DNA of 10,586 nt from Synechococcus sp. (GTDB taxonomy: Bacteria > Cyanobacteriota > Cyanobacteriia > Thermostichales > PCC-7336). The stretch is from the NCBI GenBank assembly GCA_051439425.1, contig JBFRWD010000125.1, positions 1-10,586 on the forward strand, read 5' to 3'. Both the position numbers and the translations under genes were made by a program. Of the stretch, positions 2,471 to 10,586 are shown in pieces (position 1 is the stretch's first letter; each line of letters starts with the position of its first letter). The notes under the pieces are model-generated. The model saw only the letters and a list, made by a program, of their open reading frames with translations. It ran no database searches and had not been told where the DNA came from.

Positions 2471-2824
2471 ATGGTGCTTTTTTTGGCCGATGAGAATTTC
2501 AATAATCAAATTGTGCGAGGAATTCTCAGACAAAGAGAATCTGTTGATATTGTTCGCGTGCAAGATGTTGGTCTATCAGGGGCTGACGACCCGCAGGTAT
2601 TGGAGTGGGCGGCACAATACGAACGCGTCGTATTGACTCACGATGTGGCTACCATGGCCGATTTTGCTTACGAGCGGGTAAAAAAGGGGGTGAATATGCC
2701 TGGATTATTTGAAGTTAGCCGGCGCGTATCGGTTGGGCAGGCGATTGAAGAAATATTGTTGATTGACGAACTCAGTCTCGAGGGAGAGTGGGAAGGACAA
2801 GTTAGGTTCTTGCCTTTGAGGTAA
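2471..2824 (+). CDS. DUF5615-family PIN-like toxin (VapC45-like)
   Basis: N-terminal FLADENF, plus GADDPQVLEWA and VVLTHD acidic PIN motifs; 17 bp downstream of the DUF433 gene. Confidence 0.9.
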   Translation: MVLFLADENFNNQIVRGILRQRESVDIVRVQDVGLSGADDPQVLEWAAQYERVVLTHDVATMADFAYERVKKGVNMPGLFEVSRRVSVGQAIEEILLIDELSLEGEWEGQVRFLPLR

Positions 2825-2836
2825 TGTACAACCTTA

Positions 2837-3831
2837 CTAAATGCTAGGGTTGTCGCTCTCTCCAACGTAAGCATCTGCTGCATGTCTGAAAAACGCCTGC
2901 TCTGCCGCCACTTGTAGCGCCTGCTTGGCATACTGCCGATAGCTGCGCTCGTTCTTTGTCTCGTCAGCGTTCTGGCATGCATCCCATCCATCCCCCATAA
3001 AGCCAAATTGGTCGCAAACGTGTGCCTGAGCCGATGGGGCGTCATCCCTTCTAATCCCGCCAGCTCCCCTAATTACCGAATGACATTGCGAATCCCTTGA
3101 TAGCTCAAGCGATGGGTGGGACGGCCCGGTATCAGCGTCACAAACAGCGGAAGCTCGTCTGTTAGCTCCTCCTTTTGCTCCCGCCATTCCAAATACTCAT
3201 CCAACATCACTGTGGCTTGCGGCAATAGCGGCACTTTGCCGGTACTGTCATCCTTGGCCTGGCAAATATCCAATCTCGTGCCGTCGTAATCTCCCACATC
3301 CAGAAGGCTGACATAACCCGCTCTCAATCCGTGTTCCAAAACGGCCAACAACGCCCGATCTCGCCACAGAGTCACCCCTCGATACTTCACAGCTTCTCTG
3401 AGCGCTTGAACTTCTTCGGTATTCAAATCGAATGGGGGTAACTTCGGTAGCTTCTCCAAACTGACGGCTGATGTGGCCAGTTGAGCCCTTTCGACTGGAT
3501 AGGCTCTGAAAAACCAACCGAAAAAGCTTTTCAACGCTGCTAAAACGCGATTGCGAGATGAGGCTTTCAGTTGTTGCTCGATCAAATAAGACTTGTATCG
3601 CGTCAGATCCTTAATACCGACTTGAAACCAGGGTTTGTCGCACCAACTCAAAAAGCGGCGTAGCTCACATCGGTAGGCATTCTCGGTATTCGGAGCCAGA
3701 GATTTTGCTTTGAGAAATTCATCGATGCCCAGCCAGCGAATATCGGGAGGTGAATTATCTGTACTAGAACGGTGATCGCCATTCAGAGACTTCAATACAA
3801 CTGGAGGAATTTTCTCGTCTGATTTTGCCAT
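2837..3831 (-). pseudogene. Tyrosine recombinase (XerC/D-like resolvase/integrase), disrupted
   Basis: SAM-like N-domain (LAPNTENAY..ELRRF), HGLRA (Arg), AKDDS (Lys), HRLRHTFAT (HxxR), then LTR[H]KNERSYRQY. In-frame TAA at 3073-3075 and an apparent 1-nt deletion at about 2957 in the His codon; the C-terminus continues in another frame to TAG at 2837. Start is 3831 or 3882. Confidence 0.88.
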
Positions 3832-3903
3832 AACTAACTCGTCGCCCAATCGGGATGCGCAAGCTTCTGCTATCGGTGCCAATGGCTTACCAATACAATA
3901 ATA

Positions 3904-4672: not shown

Positions 4673-6247
4673 TCATGATTTCTTATAGAAAGAAACATGA
4701 TATTTTTTCCCAACATCAGGCACATTGCGGTTCACTATATCGGATAATGATTTAGTTGATTGGATCTCATTCCAGCCAGCTTCGGAAAACGTCTCCTTGT
4801 TAAATACATTTTCCGACAGTAGAGGATTAGTTAGAACAACTGAGAAGGCATCGCTAGCAATCATGCGCTCAATCAGTAATGGAATTGCTGAATTCGGTCT
4901 TGCATCCTCAGCATAGAGACCCACGTAAAATTCGATATTATCAACCTGGCCATACAGCAGCCTTAGTAAATCCTGAGTCTTCTTATCGCTTGAAATCTGA
5001 TCGAAATCGGTTACACGTGGATACTTGCAACGCTCGCGATAATCATTGTAACTGGCAATCTGATTCTCTCTCCCGTATCGAATACTCGCCAACTCCACTT
5101 CATGCAAAAACTCAGGAGTATTAAATAAACCGATTTGAGTTCCAGATTGCAATGAGGTCTCTTCGAAGAGTTCTCCCAGCCCCCGTTTAAGAATCAGTTC
5201 GTTGTTCCACATTGTTGCTGGCATTGGCATTTCTTTGCCTTCATACTGAAGCACCTCAGGCAAGGCACTATGCCAGCGATAGACTAAGCTAAACTCTACA
5301 GTCATTCGATTGGTACGATACCATCTCTCTTTTCTGAATGAATCAGGATGAACAACAACATTAAAATGATATGGCGTAATGTGATTAACGTATTCCTCAA
5401 CAACAATCTTCAGGATTATTACTATTAAAGTATTGCGTGCCGTTTGAAACAGTCTTTCGTCATCCCAATCAGGATTATTCTTCAAAAGTAAATCGCATAA
5501 TCTATTATGCTCTCTCAAACAAAGAACGTTGAGCATAACGTATCCAATCTGTACATTGGATCGCTCAACTCCCATAGCAAAGAAGGCCTCTTTTTTCTTG
5601 CCTTCCACCTCTTCTTGAACGCGCCTTAGAGGTTCATACAATCCTTCAAATTCCTCTTTGAATATATTATTGTGAGCATCTTCATACAGAAAGAGAGGGT
5701 ATTCTTCTCCATTAAGAATCTGACTTTTTAACTTACCATCCTTTTTTAAGCGCAGTTTATCCGTAGATTCTTTGCTTAGCCCATAGAGCGGAGCAAGATC
5801 AATTTCATGATTTGAAGTATTTTGTCTTCTATTCTTTTGATCGACTCTTAAAAAGCCATCAGTAAACCACTGCACCCAGTAGGGAAACAATAAGCTTGAC
5901 TTGTCTGATTCAATGGTTTTACCATCTTGCTTTTCAAATAAAACCTTCAAGTCTTGCAGCGTTGGTAAGTTGCTAACTTCGTTAAATGAAGGATTGGGCG
6001 CAAGATGCCTACCGGTCCACTTACGATTGGTCAAAGACTCCCACGATGTGTAAGGCGCAAGTGTTGAGAAGGTATGAGGGCGATTAGGCAGTTTGTATAC
6101 AACATTATTTATGAGGAGCTTGTTCAAGAAAAGCTTTATAGATCGATTGGATTGAAGGATCATCCAAATCAGCTTGAAATTACTGAGCAAAAAAACTTCC
6201 AGTTTATTTCTGAAGCCATCTCTAGAGGTATCTCTTCTTGGTCTCAT
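4673..6247 (-). CDS. Peroxidase-cyclooxygenase superfamily heme protein; COX-like fatty-acid dioxygenase, 524 aa
   Basis: COX-like motifs: NHEIDLAPLYG, LREHNRLCD, WDDERLFQTAR, KIVVEEYVNH, EFSLVYRWHSALP (cf. COX EFNTLYHWHPLLP: catalytic Tyr and proximal His), SYNDYR, LYGQVDNIEFYVGLYAE, DAFS..LTNP. Confidence 0.9.
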   Translation of the reverse strand: MRPRRDTSRDGFRNKLEVFLLSNFKLIWMILQSNRSIKLFLNKLLINNVVYKLPNRPHTFSTLAPYTSWESLTNRKWTGRHLAPNPSFNEVSNLPTLQDLKVLFEKQDGKTIESDKSSLLFPYWVQWFTDGFLRVDQKNRRQNTSNHEIDLAPLYGLSKESTDKLRLKKDGKLKSQILNGEEYPLFLYEDAHNNIFKEEFEGLYEPLRRVQEEVEGKKKEAFFAMGVERSNVQIGYVMLNVLCLREHNRLCDLLLKNNPDWDDERLFQTARNTLIVIILKIVVEEYVNHITPYHFNVVVHPDSFRKERWYRTNRMTVEFSLVYRWHSALPEVLQYEGKEMPMPATMWNNELILKRGLGELFEETSLQSGTQIGLFNTPEFLHEVELASIRYGRENQIASYNDYRERCKYPRVTDFDQISSDKKTQDLLRLLYGQVDNIEFYVGLYAEDARPNSAIPLLIERMIASDAFSVVLTNPLLSENVFNKETFSEAGWNEIQSTKSLSDIVNRNVPDVGKKYHVSFYKKS

Positions 6248-6634: not shown

Positions 6635-9600
6635 TCAATTTGCGCCCTCTAGCCTCACCCGCTGCACCTCTGGCAAGGGAACGGCTGCCCGTAACTTGCC
6701 CGTAACTCCTTTCAATCGGCATGTCCCTCGATCAATCGCATCCACCATCCACGATAGCGATGGGTGTTTCGTCCATTTCACCCACTGTCCCTCTTTGAGG
6801 GGAGCCGTATCGACCTCTACCTGTATTGATTGATTAATTGGGGGGGTCGATACCGTCGCCGATTCGGTTTCATCTTGGGTGCGAGCCATTTCTCGACGCT
6901 CCAGTATTTGAGTTAGGAGCTCCCAATGCTCCTCATCGATGCGATAGAGCTTGGTTTGCTCCCCTCGCGGTCCCACAAATCTAGTCCGGCATTTGATGCC
7001 CAACTGGGACAGTAACGCTCGAAAGATCTGTCCGTTACTGGTGCTGTCCGTAACGCTGTAACCCAGCGCATTCTTAATGGCTTTTGCTTGCTGGCGTGCC
7101 AGAGCACACAGCGGTTCTAAATCTTGACTCGACCATTCTTGAGAGGGGTCAATATAGTGATGCAACCCGAGCAGTTCTCTCACCTGCCGTTTCAGCTCGA
7201 AACAGCTTTGGTCTGGGAGAAACAACCCCTTCAGCCAGTAGGCTTGTCGGGCAATACCGCGACTGTCTCGGGTGATGGCAAATGCTTGGCCCTGCAATAA
7301 AGCTTCCAGTTCCACTACCTTGCCTCTGAAGCGACCCCAATCATCCAGCTCCACCCATGAAGATGTGATGTCTGCTTCATCGAGAATGTAAAATCGAGAC
7401 AATGTGGTTTTGCGTTCGTCTCGCAGTTGTTGGGGAGTTCGTTTCTCCTGTTGTTGCAACGAGCTGAATTCCAACTCGGACAGCACTCGGCTGTCAACCA
7501 CCCGCTCGAATTCTGCTTGCTTGCTGCGATCACGGGCTTCTTTGATTTGCTTCTTCAGTTCGTCAGCATCTTCGTTTTCGATGACGGTGATGCTGACATG
7601 GTTGCCTTCCAGCCTGAGACGTTCTGCCAGCCCCCCCCGCAGCCACCACATAGCTGAGTTGGTATTGGCGATAATCCTGGCCCAGTGGTCGAGGTGGGGA
7701 TTGTTGCGAAATCCATATTCTTCCTCCACTACCGACCCCAAATCGGGGCGCAAAGAGGTGCGAATTAAAGCTATTTCGGTATCCCAGCGGGTGAGGAGAT
7801 CCTGTTGGACTCTCAGGGGATAGTCACTCTTGCTAGCTTTGTTGAAGTTCTTGCCGGTGGAGGCACACCAGACGATGCGGGGGATGGGGGCTCTGACTCT
7901 GGCTAAGGCTTGAGCGATATCGGAATCGGAGAGAACGCCGTTGAATAGTCCGAAAACACAATCGAAATGCTCCACTTCGATGCTGACGCCGGTGGCCATG
8001 CTGGGGGTGGCAATCACAATGTCGTAGTCCAGCACATCCTCATTCACATTGCGAATGAACTCCACTTCGATATCCCCGCCGCTGGTATCGCTATTGATAA
8101 TCAGTGTCTTGCTGGCAGGAGCGGCATTCTCGATTTGGGTCAGCAGCTGGGCGATGGTGTTGCTGTCGCTTTTGCTGTCGGTTGCCACAAAGACTTTTTG
8201 TTGGAGGGCGATCGCCTCCAGAAGTCTTGAAATTAAAGCTGATTTGGGGGCCTCCAGCAGTTCGATGGGATAGCCCTTAGGGACATGGGTATTGCGAACG
8301 AGAAAGGCTGAATCACTGTTTTTGCGCAGATTCTCGACATAGGTAAGTTCGTCATCGGTCAGATCGGCGCTGGCAATAATCACCCGTTTGGCAACGCGAA
8401 TCAGATCGTGGAAGCGGGCCAGGAGTGCAGGTCTGCGGCCGCCTTTATTGCAGGTGGAGCTGGAGAGGAGATGGTGCACCACTTGATCGACTTCGTCCAG
8501 CACCAGATCGCAATCTCTGAATTCGGCTGGATCGATAGAGAGTAAGGAATCGACGCACAGCCCCAGTCTTTGAGTGGGGGTATCGCCATCCACAATCCAG
8601 GTGCCGTGGCCGCGATCTGTGTCGGTTTTCCAGGCGATATTTAATCGCTGAGCCAAGCTACGGCCCAAACAAACTCGGTGGGTGAGTAGCAAGGCTTTTG
8701 GGCTGTAAGCTAACAGGCTGCGAATGCTGTTGGTTTTGCCGGACCCCTTGCACGATTCGATGGCGATGATGCCTTTTTCGGGGAAGGCAACCTCATTCAG
8801 TTTCAGTTCGGACTGACTGAGTTTGAGTGAGGGCCTACGGGAGCGTTTGGCCCAATAACGACGATGCCAAAGCCAAGCGGGATAAGGCTGTGCGTCTCGA
8901 TAGAGACGAGCAATCGCCTCGCTACCCTTGGCCACACCGTAATCATCGATGCCGGTTTTGCTGGTGTCGGGCAGCAAGGGAATGCGCAGGATGTTGACGG
9001 TGCAACCGGCATCGGAATAGCAGATGCCGAGTTTGCGTGTTTCTCTACTGACGTCTCTTCTGGTTTTTGGTTTTGTTTCGGTGTCGAGGGCGATGAAGAC
9101 CTGTCGACTTTCTTGAGCAAATAGCTGAAGGTAGGGGCGCAGTCGTTTGCCAGTGCCATCGGGGTTGAAGACCCCCATCGTGATCCCCGAAAGGGCAATG
9201 CAGGCGTGACCTTTGCTAAGAAGATGTTGAGCTTTTTTGTAGCCCTCAGTGATCGTGATGGGAATGGAAGGAGTCAGACTGACCCAAGTCCAGAATTCGA
9301 AATCAGTCGGACGATCCGAACGATTCTCCCCTATATACGCAGGACAGCAGGGATAGATACCTGCATCGTCAGCCACCAGCCACCAGACCCGATCGCTGAC
9401 GGGTGGAAACCCGCCGCGAACTCCCAATCCTTTAGGACTTTCGTACTTGCGGTACTTCCCTTTCTTAGCATCCCAGATGGGGTGGGAGAGTTTGGCTTGA
9501 AAGACTTCCCGTTGCCAGTTGCGCTCGGGATTGAGGGTATAGAGGAGAGCAGCGTATTGGGTGGGAGTGGATTGATGGCGGAAGCGTTTGAACTGCCAGC

Positions 9601-9832
9601 CCAATGCTGCGTGAATGGGGGCAGCGAGAATCTCGCCACCGGCCCCTAGTTCGAGATCGGGGACAAGGCTTACGCCACAGCGATAAAGGTCATGGGCGAT
9701 GCAACTACCTTCCGTCCATTCTCGGTAGATGCGATTGGTGAATTCGTCCGGTGAGTGAAAAGTAGAGGGATCTGGATGTTGAGCGATCCCGACCGATTCG
9801 CCTAAGCGTTCGGTGTCAGTCAGAGTATTCAT
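6635..9832 (-). CDS. repA: Plasmid replication protein, CyRepA1-like (DUF3854 primase-like domain + SF2 helicase/origin-binding domain), 1065 aa
   Basis: RKYESPKG, ITEGYKKA, IALDTETK and KTGIDDY (DUF3854/Toprim-like); Walker A SCKGSGKT; THRVCLG; Walker B LVLDEVDQV; IATPSMATGVSI; QALARVR. Confidence 0.9.
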   Translation of the reverse strand: MNTLTDTERLGESVGIAQHPDPSTFHSPDEFTNRIYREWTEGSCIAHDLYRCGVSLVPDLELGAGGEILAAPIHAALGWQFKRFRHQSTPTQYAALLYTLNPERNWQREVFQAKLSHPIWDAKKGKYRKYESPKGLGVRGGFPPVSDRVWWLVADDAGIYPCCPAYIGENRSDRPTDFEFWTWVSLTPSIPITITEGYKKAQHLLSKGHACIALSGITMGVFNPDGTGKRLRPYLQLFAQESRQVFIALDTETKPKTRRDVSRETRKLGICYSDAGCTVNILRIPLLPDTSKTGIDDYGVAKGSEAIARLYRDAQPYPAWLWHRRYWAKRSRRPSLKLSQSELKLNEVAFPEKGIIAIESCKGSGKTNSIRSLLAYSPKALLLTHRVCLGRSLAQRLNIAWKTDTDRGHGTWIVDGDTPTQRLGLCVDSLLSIDPAEFRDCDLVLDEVDQVVHHLLSSSTCNKGGRRPALLARFHDLIRVAKRVIIASADLTDDELTYVENLRKNSDSAFLVRNTHVPKGYPIELLEAPKSALISRLLEAIALQQKVFVATDSKSDSNTIAQLLTQIENAAPASKTLIINSDTSGGDIEVEFIRNVNEDVLDYDIVIATPSMATGVSIEVEHFDCVFGLFNGVLSDSDIAQALARVRAPIPRIVWCASTGKNFNKASKSDYPLRVQQDLLTRWDTEIALIRTSLRPDLGSVVEEEYGFRNNPHLDHWARIIANTNSAMWWLRGGLAERLRLEGNHVSITVIENEDADELKKQIKEARDRSKQAEFERVVDSRVLSELEFSSLQQQEKRTPQQLRDERKTTLSRFYILDEADITSSWVELDDWGRFRGKVVELEALLQGQAFAITRDSRGIARQAYWLKGLFLPDQSCFELKRQVRELLGLHHYIDPSQEWSSQDLEPLCALARQQAKAIKNALGYSVTDSTSNGQIFRALLSQLGIKCRTRFVGPRGEQTKLYRIDEEHWELLTQILERREMARTQDETESATVSTPPINQSIQVEVDTAPLKEGQWVKWTKHPSLSWMVDAIDRGTCRLKGVTGKLRAAVPLPEVQRVRLEGAN
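6807..6853. other. Intragenic inverted repeat flanking an AT-rich core; candidate replication origin
   Basis: GTATCGACC (6807-6815) and GGTCGATAC (6845-6853) are perfect 9-bp arms around TATTGATTGATTAATT and a G7 run, inside an otherwise GC-richer gene. Confidence 0.5.
8208..8215. repeat. HIP1 octamer GCGATCGC
   Basis: Exact match. Further CGATCG cores occur near 336, 458, 3928, 9390, 10266, 10352 and 10378, consistent with a cyanobacterial host. Confidence 0.6.
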
Positions 9833-9888
9833 CAGTGTCTCAATCCGTTACGTGGTGCGGATTGGAGAACGGACTGGTGGGTTTCTAG

Positions 9889-9914
9889 AAAAAATTAGTG
9901 AAAGTATCTCACTA
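9889..9914 (-). terminator. Weak terminator-like hairpin in the rep leader (candidate attenuator)
   Basis: On the minus strand: UAGUGA-gauacuu-UCACUA followed by AUUUUUU, about 57 nt upstream of the rep ATG. The stem is short and AU-rich. Confidence 0.4.
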
Positions 9915-9915
9915 C

Positions 9916-9944
9916 TTGCCAGCACGAATTTCTGTTCGTAAAAT
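9916..9944 (+). promoter_or_regulatory. Sigma70-type promoter antisense to the rep leader
   Basis: TTGCCA (9916-9921), exactly 17 nt, TAAAAT (9939-9944). Confidence 0.7.
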
Positions 9945-9949
9945 AGGCA

Positions 9950-10062
9950 CTAGAAAACCCCCGAGACCTCTCAATCGCGACCCGCCAAGGCTTGATTAAG
10001 GTTCTCATCCGCATAAAGGCTATCGAGCTCTCCTGTTTCCTCAGGAGGGTTCAAGTCTTTTT
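9950..10062 (+). ncRNA. Predicted ~110-nt countertranscript (antisense copy-number control RNA, CopA/Inc-like)
   Basis: Starts just downstream of the promoter. Bulged stem-loop at 9963-10006 with apical CC-CGCCAA-GG (UUGGCG on the rep-sense strand), then a terminator hairpin and T-run. Confidence 0.65.
10015..10062 (+). terminator. Rho-independent terminator of the predicted antisense RNA
   Basis: GAGCTCTCCTG (10025-10035), loop TTTCCT, CAGGAGGGTTC (10042-10052); 11 bp including G-U pairs, extended by AAAGGCT/AGTCTTT, with TTTTT at 10058-10062. Confidence 0.7.
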
Positions 10063-10274
10063 AGGGGGGTTACGTCATTTTTCTTCCTCCAAACGAGTGT
10101 TTAAAATTGCCTAACCCAAGCTGAGATCTAGTCCGGGGAGACTATCATTAGCGCAACTATACCTCCGAAATTTAACGCTCGCAGCCACTGTCAATAGTGG
10201 TTTCTACAGAGGTTTAGGATTTCAACACGCTACCGCTAGCTTTTGCAACGATAATCAAATAAAAGCGATCGTTT

Positions 10275-10400
10275 CTAAACGAAACGCAATAAAACAACAA
10301 GCTTAAAAGAATACATATCTTGTATTGAATACAACAAGCTATCGGTATCTACGATCGCCAAACGTGCAACCAACAAGCGATCGATTTCGGTTGTCTGCAT
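10275..10400 (-). CDS. Possible 41-aa small protein or gene remnant (MQTTEIDRLLVARLAIVD...)
   Basis: AAGGAGG lies 4 nt before the ATG at 10400; no recognisable family. Confidence 0.25.
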   Translation of the reverse strand: MQTTEIDRLLVARLAIVDTDSLLYSIQDMYSFKLVVLLRFV

Positions 10401-10462
10401 ACCGCCTCCTTCGGTAATGAATTGGCCAGGATAAACGCTCCAGCGAACAGGCAAGAAATCGA

Positions 10463-10586
10463 CATGGTTCAATAACGGTTCATTTTGGGTAACAGTCGCA
10501 GCAAAAAATGGACCAATTATTAAAGTTGGCCAATCGGGCAAATGGTAGAGTGATCACGCCCTTTGGAAGCGCTGGAATCCCAACAT
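10463..10586 (-). repeat. Right copy of the 124-bp inverted repeat; runs to the window edge
   Basis: Reverse complement aligns without gaps to 127-250 (13 mismatches). Its true outer boundary cannot be seen. Confidence 0.95.

Follow-up and report, generated by a model that had tools for sequence, protein, structure and literature searches.

How a cyanobacterial replicon built around a CyRepA1-family replication gene (rep) holds its copy number down is the question raised by the DNA just upstream of rep on contig C125 of the marine cyanobacterial genome G000, an assembly of 4.8 Mb in 182 contigs. The window, by which we mean the whole stretch of DNA analysed, is this entire contig of 10,586 bases. 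Positions 9916–10062, on the strand opposite rep, are probably the gene of a cis-antisense RNA (countertranscript) of about 112 nt directed against the rep leader and serving as a negative control of CyRepA1-type plasmid replication, and the unit most likely limits plasmid copy number. Over its whole length the predicted RNA is complementary to the rep-sense leader. Its parts, and the gene that it faces, are as follows.

6635–9832, minus strand: rep, 1065 amino acids, CyRepA1 family (NCBIfam NF042913, Pfam DUF3854).
9916–9944, plus strand: antisense promoter, TTGCCA, 17 nt, TAAAAT (from consensus match and conservation).
9951–9962, plus strand: predicted RNA start and single-stranded 5′ tail, UAGAAAACCCCC (from folds and alignment).
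9963–10006, plus strand: stem-loop 1 (SL1), a bulged stem-loop with apical loop CGCCAA at 9983–9988 (from the fold).
10007–10014, plus strand: unpaired linker (from fold and alignment).
10015–10062, plus strand: stem-loop 2 (SL2) and T run, the predicted intrinsic terminator of the antisense RNA (from scans and fold).
10064–10069: G run after the T run, with GGGG kept in all five loci compared.

Rep scores 380.6 bits with NF042913 (‘plasmid replication protein, CyRepA1 family’), whose cut-off is 200, and matches DUF3854 at E 6e-32; among annotated plasmid Rep proteins its closest counterparts come from Pseudanabaena, at 42% identity. Counts out of five refer throughout to the window and four relatives: L001, a contig of a metagenome-assembled genome (MAG) whose rep N-terminus is 84% identical to the window’s; L038 (rep 84% identical) and L039 (58%), both metagenome contigs; and L007, from genome G006 of the same genus as the window, with 75% identical upstream DNA. 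These are four distinct sequences; pairwise identity is 87% for L001 with L038 and 85% for L007 with L039.

A sequence-only reading of the locus had proposed a self-contained unit of promoter, two hairpins and terminator opposite a CyRepA1-family rep gene, and both conservation and strand-specific folding support it. Its promoter (TTGCCA at 9916–9921, TAAAAT at 9939–9944) matches the sigma-70 consensus at 10 of 12 positions, folding returns the bulged stem-loop at 9963–10006 with its CGCCAA loop as described, and the strong hairpin with a T run is confirmed in place at 10015–10062; the RNA, which had been put at about 110 nt, is predicted at about 112 nt (9951–10062).

The promoter was flagged by consensus scan in all five loci and is, in each of the four relatives, the sole promoter-like site in the roughly 460 bases scanned. 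Its −10 box is invariant, the spacer is always 17 nt and free of gaps, and the −35 box reads TTGCCA in three loci, TTGCAA in one and TTGCCT in one. Going by the −10 box alone, we infer an RNA start near 9951–9953. The 5′ tail at 9951–9962 is unpaired in all five folds, with 15 of 18 alignment columns invariant. SL1 (GAGA-CCU/AGG-U-UCUC, AAUCG/UGAUU and CC/GG around CGCCAA) forms the same hairpin in every fold; its tip is its most variable stretch (7 of 18 columns invariant) between more conserved arms, and the loops across the five loci read CGCCAA, GCCAA, AGCCAC, CCC/UUCCCAA and CGGCCAAA. The apical loop is the probable recognition loop, and a variable tip between conserved arms and a near-invariant tail resembles the specificity loops of I-complex plasmids, which combine a variable tip with conserved flanks (PMC10724649, in the part available). 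The outer stem and loop of SL2 vary more than the SL1 tip. The linker and the 3′ arm of SL1 together make GGTTCTCATCCGC (10000–10012), invariant in all five. SL2 consists of an 11-pair inner stem (10025–10052) and a 7-pair outer stem (10015–10021 with 10054–10060), with TTTTT at 10058–10062; the consensus scan flagged it as a terminator in four of five loci, L007 being the exception, and a second terminator scan did so in all five, at −17 to −21 kcal/mol.

Within the window alone, pattern matches of this kind are near the chance level: a single-sequence scan of 1087 bases returned two promoter-like sites against 1.1 expected, the second at 10121–10148 with 9 of 12 matches, and two terminator-like sites against 1.4 expected. 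What sets the unit apart from chance is its conservation in the four relatives. Compared with L001, L038, L007 and L039, the window shows identities of 0.60, 0.62, 0.44 and 0.50 at the four-fold degenerate sites of rep; for the same relatives, in that order, identity reaches 0.94, 0.94, 0.80 and 0.86 in the antisense promoter and 1.00, 0.92, 0.83 and 0.83 in the 5′ tail. SL1 is 0.76–0.84 identical to the relatives (0.70 in L007) and the stretch with the G run and an adjoining mini-open reading frame (mini-ORF) 0.79–0.86, and the spacer at 10091–10145 falls to about 0.6, which is what neutral sites show in the close pair. The unit is thus conserved far above neutral sites.

Folding points to the same strand. 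All five sequences adopt one shape of tail, SL1, linker and SL2, and the 112-nt RNA at 9951–10062 folds at −36.1 kcal/mol (z −3.53), a value matched by none of 200 shuffles. On the strand opposite rep the five loci give z values of −3.53, −2.72, −2.74, −3.02 and −3.27, against +0.29, 0.00, −0.38, −1.65 and −0.07 for the same bases on the rep-sense strand; the folding signal is therefore specific to the strand opposite rep. One position of SL2 is a U-G pair in all five loci and another is U-G in three and U-A in two; such G-U pairs would be A-C on the other strand, and so mismatches there. Because the five sequences are kin, we count this strand result as one consistent pattern and not as five independent tests. 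Taken together, these observations mark the unit as a real, conserved and well delimited candidate antisense RNA gene. It is single-copy and linked to rep in both G000 and G006, a covariance search with model R1 across genome G000 having returned no second copy.

What, then, would such an RNA act on? The rep-sense leader has features of its own.

10156–10184, minus strand: candidate rep-sense promoter, CTGCGA, 17 nt, TATAGT, inferred from a conserved −10-like box.
10070–10090, minus strand: mini-ORF of GGAGG, 7 nt, ATG, one codon and a stop, present in all five loci.
9889–9914, minus strand: weak hairpin followed by AUUUUUU, a candidate attenuator between the antisense promoter and the rep ribosome site.
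9838–9870, minus strand: hairpin burying the rep ribosome-binding region CGGAUUGAGA, predicted in all five loci.

The leader probably starts near 10149: TATAGT, at 10161→10156 (−329 to −333), recurs in all five loci (as TATATT in L039), in a region of 0.75–0.82 identity. As this candidate promoter lies beyond the antisense unit, overlap of the two transcripts is plausible. The two-codon mini-ORF (second codon ACG, ACU or AUU; stop UAA or UAG) ends 238 nt before the rep ATG and a few bases short of the part of the leader that the antisense RNA would cover. It is the sole conserved ORF of the leader, longer ones differing in all five loci, and evidence of selection on it is weak because the surrounding stretch is conserved anyway.

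The ribosome-site hairpin stands 5 nt before the ATG at 9832, folds at −10.1 to −12.7 kcal/mol and is 0.77–0.88 identical among the loci. Its 5′ arm can pair with the leader segment GCGGAUGAGAAC (10012→10001), the complement of GGTTCTCATCCGC; this duplex, GCGGAUGAGAAC:GUUCUC(NN)AUCCGC, reaches about −18 kcal/mol in all five loci, and is the best leader site in four and part of the best in L001. Another segment, GGGGGUUUUCUAG (9962→9950), pairs with CUAGAAACCCACC (9888→9876) at −18.6 to −22.7 kcal/mol, an energy reached by 7, 1, 3, 11 and 1 of 300 shuffles; C-to-U changes in CUAGAAACCCACC turn G-C into G-U and so keep the pairing. The C run complementary to 10064–10069 can also pair with GGGGG at 9958–9962, as seen in the window fold. 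With its conserved hairpins and long-range pairings the leader is a structured RNA in its own right, one that spans the antisense start.

Given the observed sequence elements, their conservation and the strand-specific folding, we infer that both RNAs are transcribed, that they pair in vivo, and which step this pairing would block. An antisense RNA starting at about 9951–9953 from TTGCCA-17-TAAAAT would carry a 12-nt free tail, SL1, a free linker and the SL2 terminator. Loop–loop contact at SL1 would spread through linker and tail, and this spreading would lock up GCGGAUGAGAAC, a segment that, when free, might open the hairpin over the rep ribosome site. Rep synthesis would then drop, copy number would fall as antisense dose rose with plasmid dose, and the variable SL1 loop would set incompatibility specificity. 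In the step that we favour, the activator segment would be masked and the ribosome site would stay buried.

Several results weigh against this proposal. Covariation in the five-sequence alignment is non-significant, shuffles reaching the observed value in 259–325 of 500 cases on four measures and in 164 of 500 on a fifth, and sequence conservation largely accounts for the conserved structure; on the MAFFT alignment, RNAalifold mis-drew SL1 because of indels. In equilibrium folding, masking the target lowers the unpaired probability of the ribosome site in the window only (0.38 to 0.14), leaving the other four loci unchanged, the activator pairing appears in the minimum-energy fold of one locus in five, and shuffles reach the GCGGAUGAGAAC duplex energy in 23, 44, 15, 14 and 6 of 500 cases, which is modest. 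The T run lies 5 nt from the SL2 inner stem and is partly paired in the outer stem, and in L039 it is UUU only. The proposed rep-sense promoter has no good −35 box and went unflagged by the consensus scan. Finally, a 188-nt contig of a relative from RNA run X15 covers 9880–10055, unstranded and at a depth of 2.1. It adjoins rep-coding contigs of similar depth, and since the X15 contigs (this one and one inside rep) are unstranded, shallow and possibly DNA carry-over, they were not counted as expression.

A more elaborate scheme, which we offer tentatively and think rather unlikely, is a three-way competition in which GCGGAUGAGAAC as activator opens the ribosome-site hairpin, the antisense linker covers GCGGAUGAGAAC, and the tail UAGAAAACCCCC, mimicking CUAGAAACCCACC, competes for GGGGGUUUUCUAG. 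Such a competition is not described for CyRepA1 replicons. If true, it would amount to translational control by activator masking, an IncB/IncI-alpha-like logic that dispenses with pseudoknot and leader peptide, and the hairpin-UUUUAGG(G/U)G ending shared with asRNA1 of plasmid pSYSA and with locus L025 would mark an old lineage travelling with CyRepA1.

Among alternatives to activator masking, we regard as unlikely, though the best of them, an attenuation of the pT181/pIP501 kind, in which antisense binding to the nascent leader would favour termination at 9914→9889, before rep. A rep-sense hairpin followed by AUUUUUU, CCUUUUUU or AUUCUUU does occur between the target and the ribosome site in all five loci, and the order of target, attenuator and ribosome site is that of pT181 and pIP501. 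Changes in its arms keep the pairing (UAGUGA/UCACUA, UGGUGA/UCACCA, GUGGUG/CACUAC), and in L001, though in no other locus, the consensus scan flagged it as terminator-like. The hairpin is nevertheless weak on its own (−5.3 to −8.0 kcal/mol), and the z values of its window, −1.31, −0.13, +0.59, −0.61 and −2.85, are mostly non-significant. Masking the target moves its probability from 0.91 to 0.84, 0.07 to 0.36, 0.24 to 0.30, 0.73 to 0.88 and 0.91 to 0.80, with no consistent rise, and no conserved anti-terminator pairing was found in the leader.

Lower on our scale, and best called improbable, stands an arrangement modelled on pSYSA of Synechocystis sp. PCC 6803, in which the rep-sense leader RNA would aid the start of replication, as primer or by opening the origin, and the antisense RNA would block that and not Rep synthesis. 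According to the available part of Kaltenbrunner et al. (2023, PMC9978351), pSYSA carries a 153-nt asRNA1 opposite ssr7036 and upstream of slr7037 (CyRepA1), and its copy number, on the evidence given, depends on how sense and antisense RNA are balanced; when extra sense RNA was supplied in trans, copy number rose 2.75- to 3.2-fold, even if that RNA carried a nonsense codon. The Rep family is the same and the antisense unit is placed and oriented as asRNA1 is. With its filters off, model R1 scores highest within the pSYSA locus over the 3′ part of asRNA1, in the correct orientation (10.8 bits, E 0.002–0.008). That match is mainly terminator, however, and at 10.8 bits is insufficient for a claim of homology; blastn of the window against the pSYSA control region (NC_005230) gave no similarity, with chance-level hits elsewhere only. 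No homologue of Ssr7036 and no conserved leader ORF accompany the five loci (tblastn of the Ssr7036 ORF gave one hit, E 8, outside the leader), and priming in pSYSA itself is only proposed (PMC9978351, as far as the available text goes).

Distant loci do not strengthen the case. Over 23 of them, 3 of 30 weak R1 matches fell at the expected place against a 7% share of the search space, which is no enrichment. The sequence-only reading had proposed a covariance search upstream of CyRepA1 genes; run with model R1 and default filters over 50 sources (184 kb), it recovered the five family members alone, at 112–148 bits, the next best match scoring 15.3. Antisense-strand terminators of −15 kcal/mol or better occur at 0.63 per kb (12 sites) within 450 nt upstream of 42 distant CyRepA1-like genes, against 0.35 per kb (13 sites) inside the same genes, a weak excess.

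That there is no functional antisense RNA, and that the block acts as DNA (an origin, a Rep-binding site or single-strand initiation hairpins for the primase domain) or as a cis-acting rep leader with the promoter match a by-product, is again improbable: high sequence invariance without significant covariation would suit a constraint acting on DNA or through protein binding, long-range pairings within the leader are themselves conserved, and CCCCTAAA at 10060–10067 abuts the terminator and belongs to a motif enriched upstream of CyRepA1 genes, but that motif, TTT(T)AGG(G/T)G, was chosen after being seen and several of its loci are close kin, the window holds one exact CCCCTAAA and no cluster, the folding signal lies opposite rep and not on the leader strand, and a fixed 17-nt −35/−10 pair with a hairpin and T run 110 nt on, present in all five loci, is required by a transcription unit but not by an origin.

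The motif merits description in itself. TTT(T)AGG(G/T)G, whose complement is CCCCTAAA, is about tenfold enriched upstream of CyRepA1-like genes, with 19 and 10 overlapping matches on the two strands of 23.5 kb against 6 in 227 kb of coding DNA, a figure to be read with the motif’s choice after inspection in mind. It follows the antisense terminator directly in the window (10060–10067), in L025 and in pSYSA, occurs also in L053, and in the Nostocales-like loci L014, L015, L016 and L024 forms the core of three tandem 21-nt repeats, CTTTTCCGAATACCCCCTAAA, 340–370 nt before rep; it may be a Rep-binding core. As an iteron of the window, CCCCTAAA was rejected, its near copies standing at chance level (8 against 7.8 expected). 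Farther upstream, ACAACAAGCT (twice) and CCAACAAGCG (once) recur at 37–39-nt spacing at 10294–10379 (also 10223–10240), 460–550 nt before rep, in the most AT-rich stretch (GC 0.385). Their pattern has six matches in the window against 1.2 expected, three of them clustered at 10294–10379, and the repeats look like iterons or a partition site. The relatives lack them and have others, such as TGATAATATTATC twice in L001.

The contig as a whole looks plasmid-like, and an overlap of its ends, sought as a sign of circularity, was not found. Besides rep it carries the following.

804–1667: ParA-type ATPase.
2668–3045 and 3073–3882, minus strand: neighbouring ORFs with phage-integrase parts, the first with a SAM-like N-terminus and the start of the catalytic domain, the second with a short catalytic piece.
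4673–6247, minus strand: animal-type haem peroxidase domain (PF03098, E 1.6e-49), here on a small plasmid-like cyanobacterial contig.

The adjoining integrase ORFs look like one split or frameshifted recombinase. G000 has three further DUF3854 proteins (L003–L005, on contigs C149, C146 and C70) at 32–39% identity, two of them within open frames of about 1700 residues. In L007 a small ORF (1094–1378, same strand), helix-turn-helix-repressor-like by eye, lies directly upstream of the rep leader.

The replicon family is rare in the material searched. The upstream DNA occurs in 2 of 30 genomes of the order, the window’s own included. Relatives of the Rep N-terminus (E ≤1e-20) occur in 81 of 401 sampled genomes of the phylum, none more than 40% identical outside the window’s genome; blastn of 9700–10300 against PLSDB plasmids gave no match, and no relative of the Rep N-terminus was found in viral contigs. 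In marine metagenome runs X1 and X2, summed contig depth peaks over 9910–9977, at 153 and 90 against 20–60 nearby, a segment that covers the antisense promoter and start. Both runs also contain many variant contigs over 9910–10070, and peak and variants together suggest many more relatives that share just the segment at 9910–9977. Among the public reads, X1 has the best share of the window’s DNA (0.81) and may be the sample from which the contig came.

Such a unit would matter mainly for vector design and for comparison with pSYSA, as it opens no new kind of biology. New cyanobacterial shuttle vectors are built on CyRepA1 and CyRepA2 replicons (PMC10079941 and PMC10899382, in the parts available), and the copy-number and incompatibility determinants of these replicons are known for pSYSA only. 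Synechococcus elongatus PCC 7942 can maintain CyRepA1 replicons (PMC9978351). A second control unit, compact as it would be (a leader of about 330 nt, a 112-nt antisense RNA and a variable recognition loop), would offer a defined means of adjusting copy number and of assembling sets of compatible vectors. It would also mean that pSYSA is not alone in its arrangement and that such RNAs can target something other than a small protein gene.

How does the unit compare with known systems? ColE1 RNA I, an antisense RNA, is about 110 nt long and has a free 5′ tail, and in both respects the predicted RNA is like it; unlike ColE1, which replicates without need of Rep and whose RNA I has three stem-loops, the window has a rep gene and two stem-loops. 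With pT181 RNAI/II and pIP501 RNAIII it shares the order of sense promoter, target, opposing promoter, hairpin with U run and ribosome site, but its candidate attenuator is weak and shows no switch in folding models; pT181 and pIP501 are plasmids of Gram-positive bacteria, and their Rep proteins are unrelated to CyRepA1.

CopA/CopT (R1, IncFII) and Inc RNA/RNAI (ColIb-P9, IncB, IncK and other I-complex plasmids) likewise set a short countertranscript against a rep leader, with a bulged recognition stem-loop bearing a 6-nt loop (CGCCAA in the window, UUGGCG in the target), then a free segment and a terminator hairpin. The motif 5′-rUUGGCG-3′ is reported for the ColIb-P9 target in the title of Asano et al. 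(1998). CopT has UUGGCG too. The kinship with these systems that the sequence-only reading drew from this likeness nonetheless falls away. The hexamer CGCCAA (target UUGGCG) occurs in the window alone among the five loci, and no tap- or repY-like leader peptide stands beside rep. An Rfam search, also proposed there, was run by cmscan over 9500–10586 at E up to 10 and gave no CopA (RF00042) match and nothing at 9916–10062, merely unrelated mir-4841 and LPR10 hits elsewhere. The Rep protein is unrelated, the target lies 119–230 nt before the start codon, no tap-like peptide is coupled to rep in any of the five loci as it is in IncFII, and a loop-to-ribosome-site pseudoknot partner amounts to four pairs (UUGG:CCAA) in the window and in L001, includes wobble pairs in L007 and L039, and is absent from L038. 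The hexamer in one locus of five, the Rfam null and the missing coupled leader peptide thus indicate a unit that would work like CopA and Inc RNA and is not a member of their families.

The nearest parallel is pSYSA, and with it the suggestion that antisense control had not been characterised for such replicons fails, since antisense control beside a CyRepA1 gene is published there (PMC9978351, in the part available), where asRNA1 is itself compared with ColE1 RNA I. On pSYSX, the CyRepX genes have further sense/antisense RNA pairs (Ohdate et al. 2024, PMC10899382, in the part available). The available text of these two papers, supplements excluded, reports no antisense RNAs at other CyRepA1 replicons, and literature on CyRepA1, DUF3854 and cyanobacterial plasmid antisense copy control, supplements again excluded, turned up no other case. 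In pSYSA and the window alike, a CyRepA1-family Rep gene lies directly downstream (NF042913, 380.6 bits in the window), and a small, structured, terminator-ended RNA opposite rep, predicted in our case, is proposed to hold copy number down. The antisense start is proximal to rep and reads away from it in both: asRNA1 starts at 32,481 and slr7037 begins at 32,647 (locus positions 682 and 848), a distance of 166 nt, compared with about 119 nt before the ATG in the window. The two differ in the length of the RNA (112 nt against 153 nt) and in its target, which is the coding part of the 64-codon ssr7036 in pSYSA and a non-coding leader joined to rep in the window; for pSYSA, a proposed priming role of the sense RNA and processing by RNase E are described as well (PMC9978351, in the same part). 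What the window would add is a second CyRepA1-associated control unit, of a kind of control already known from pSYSA.

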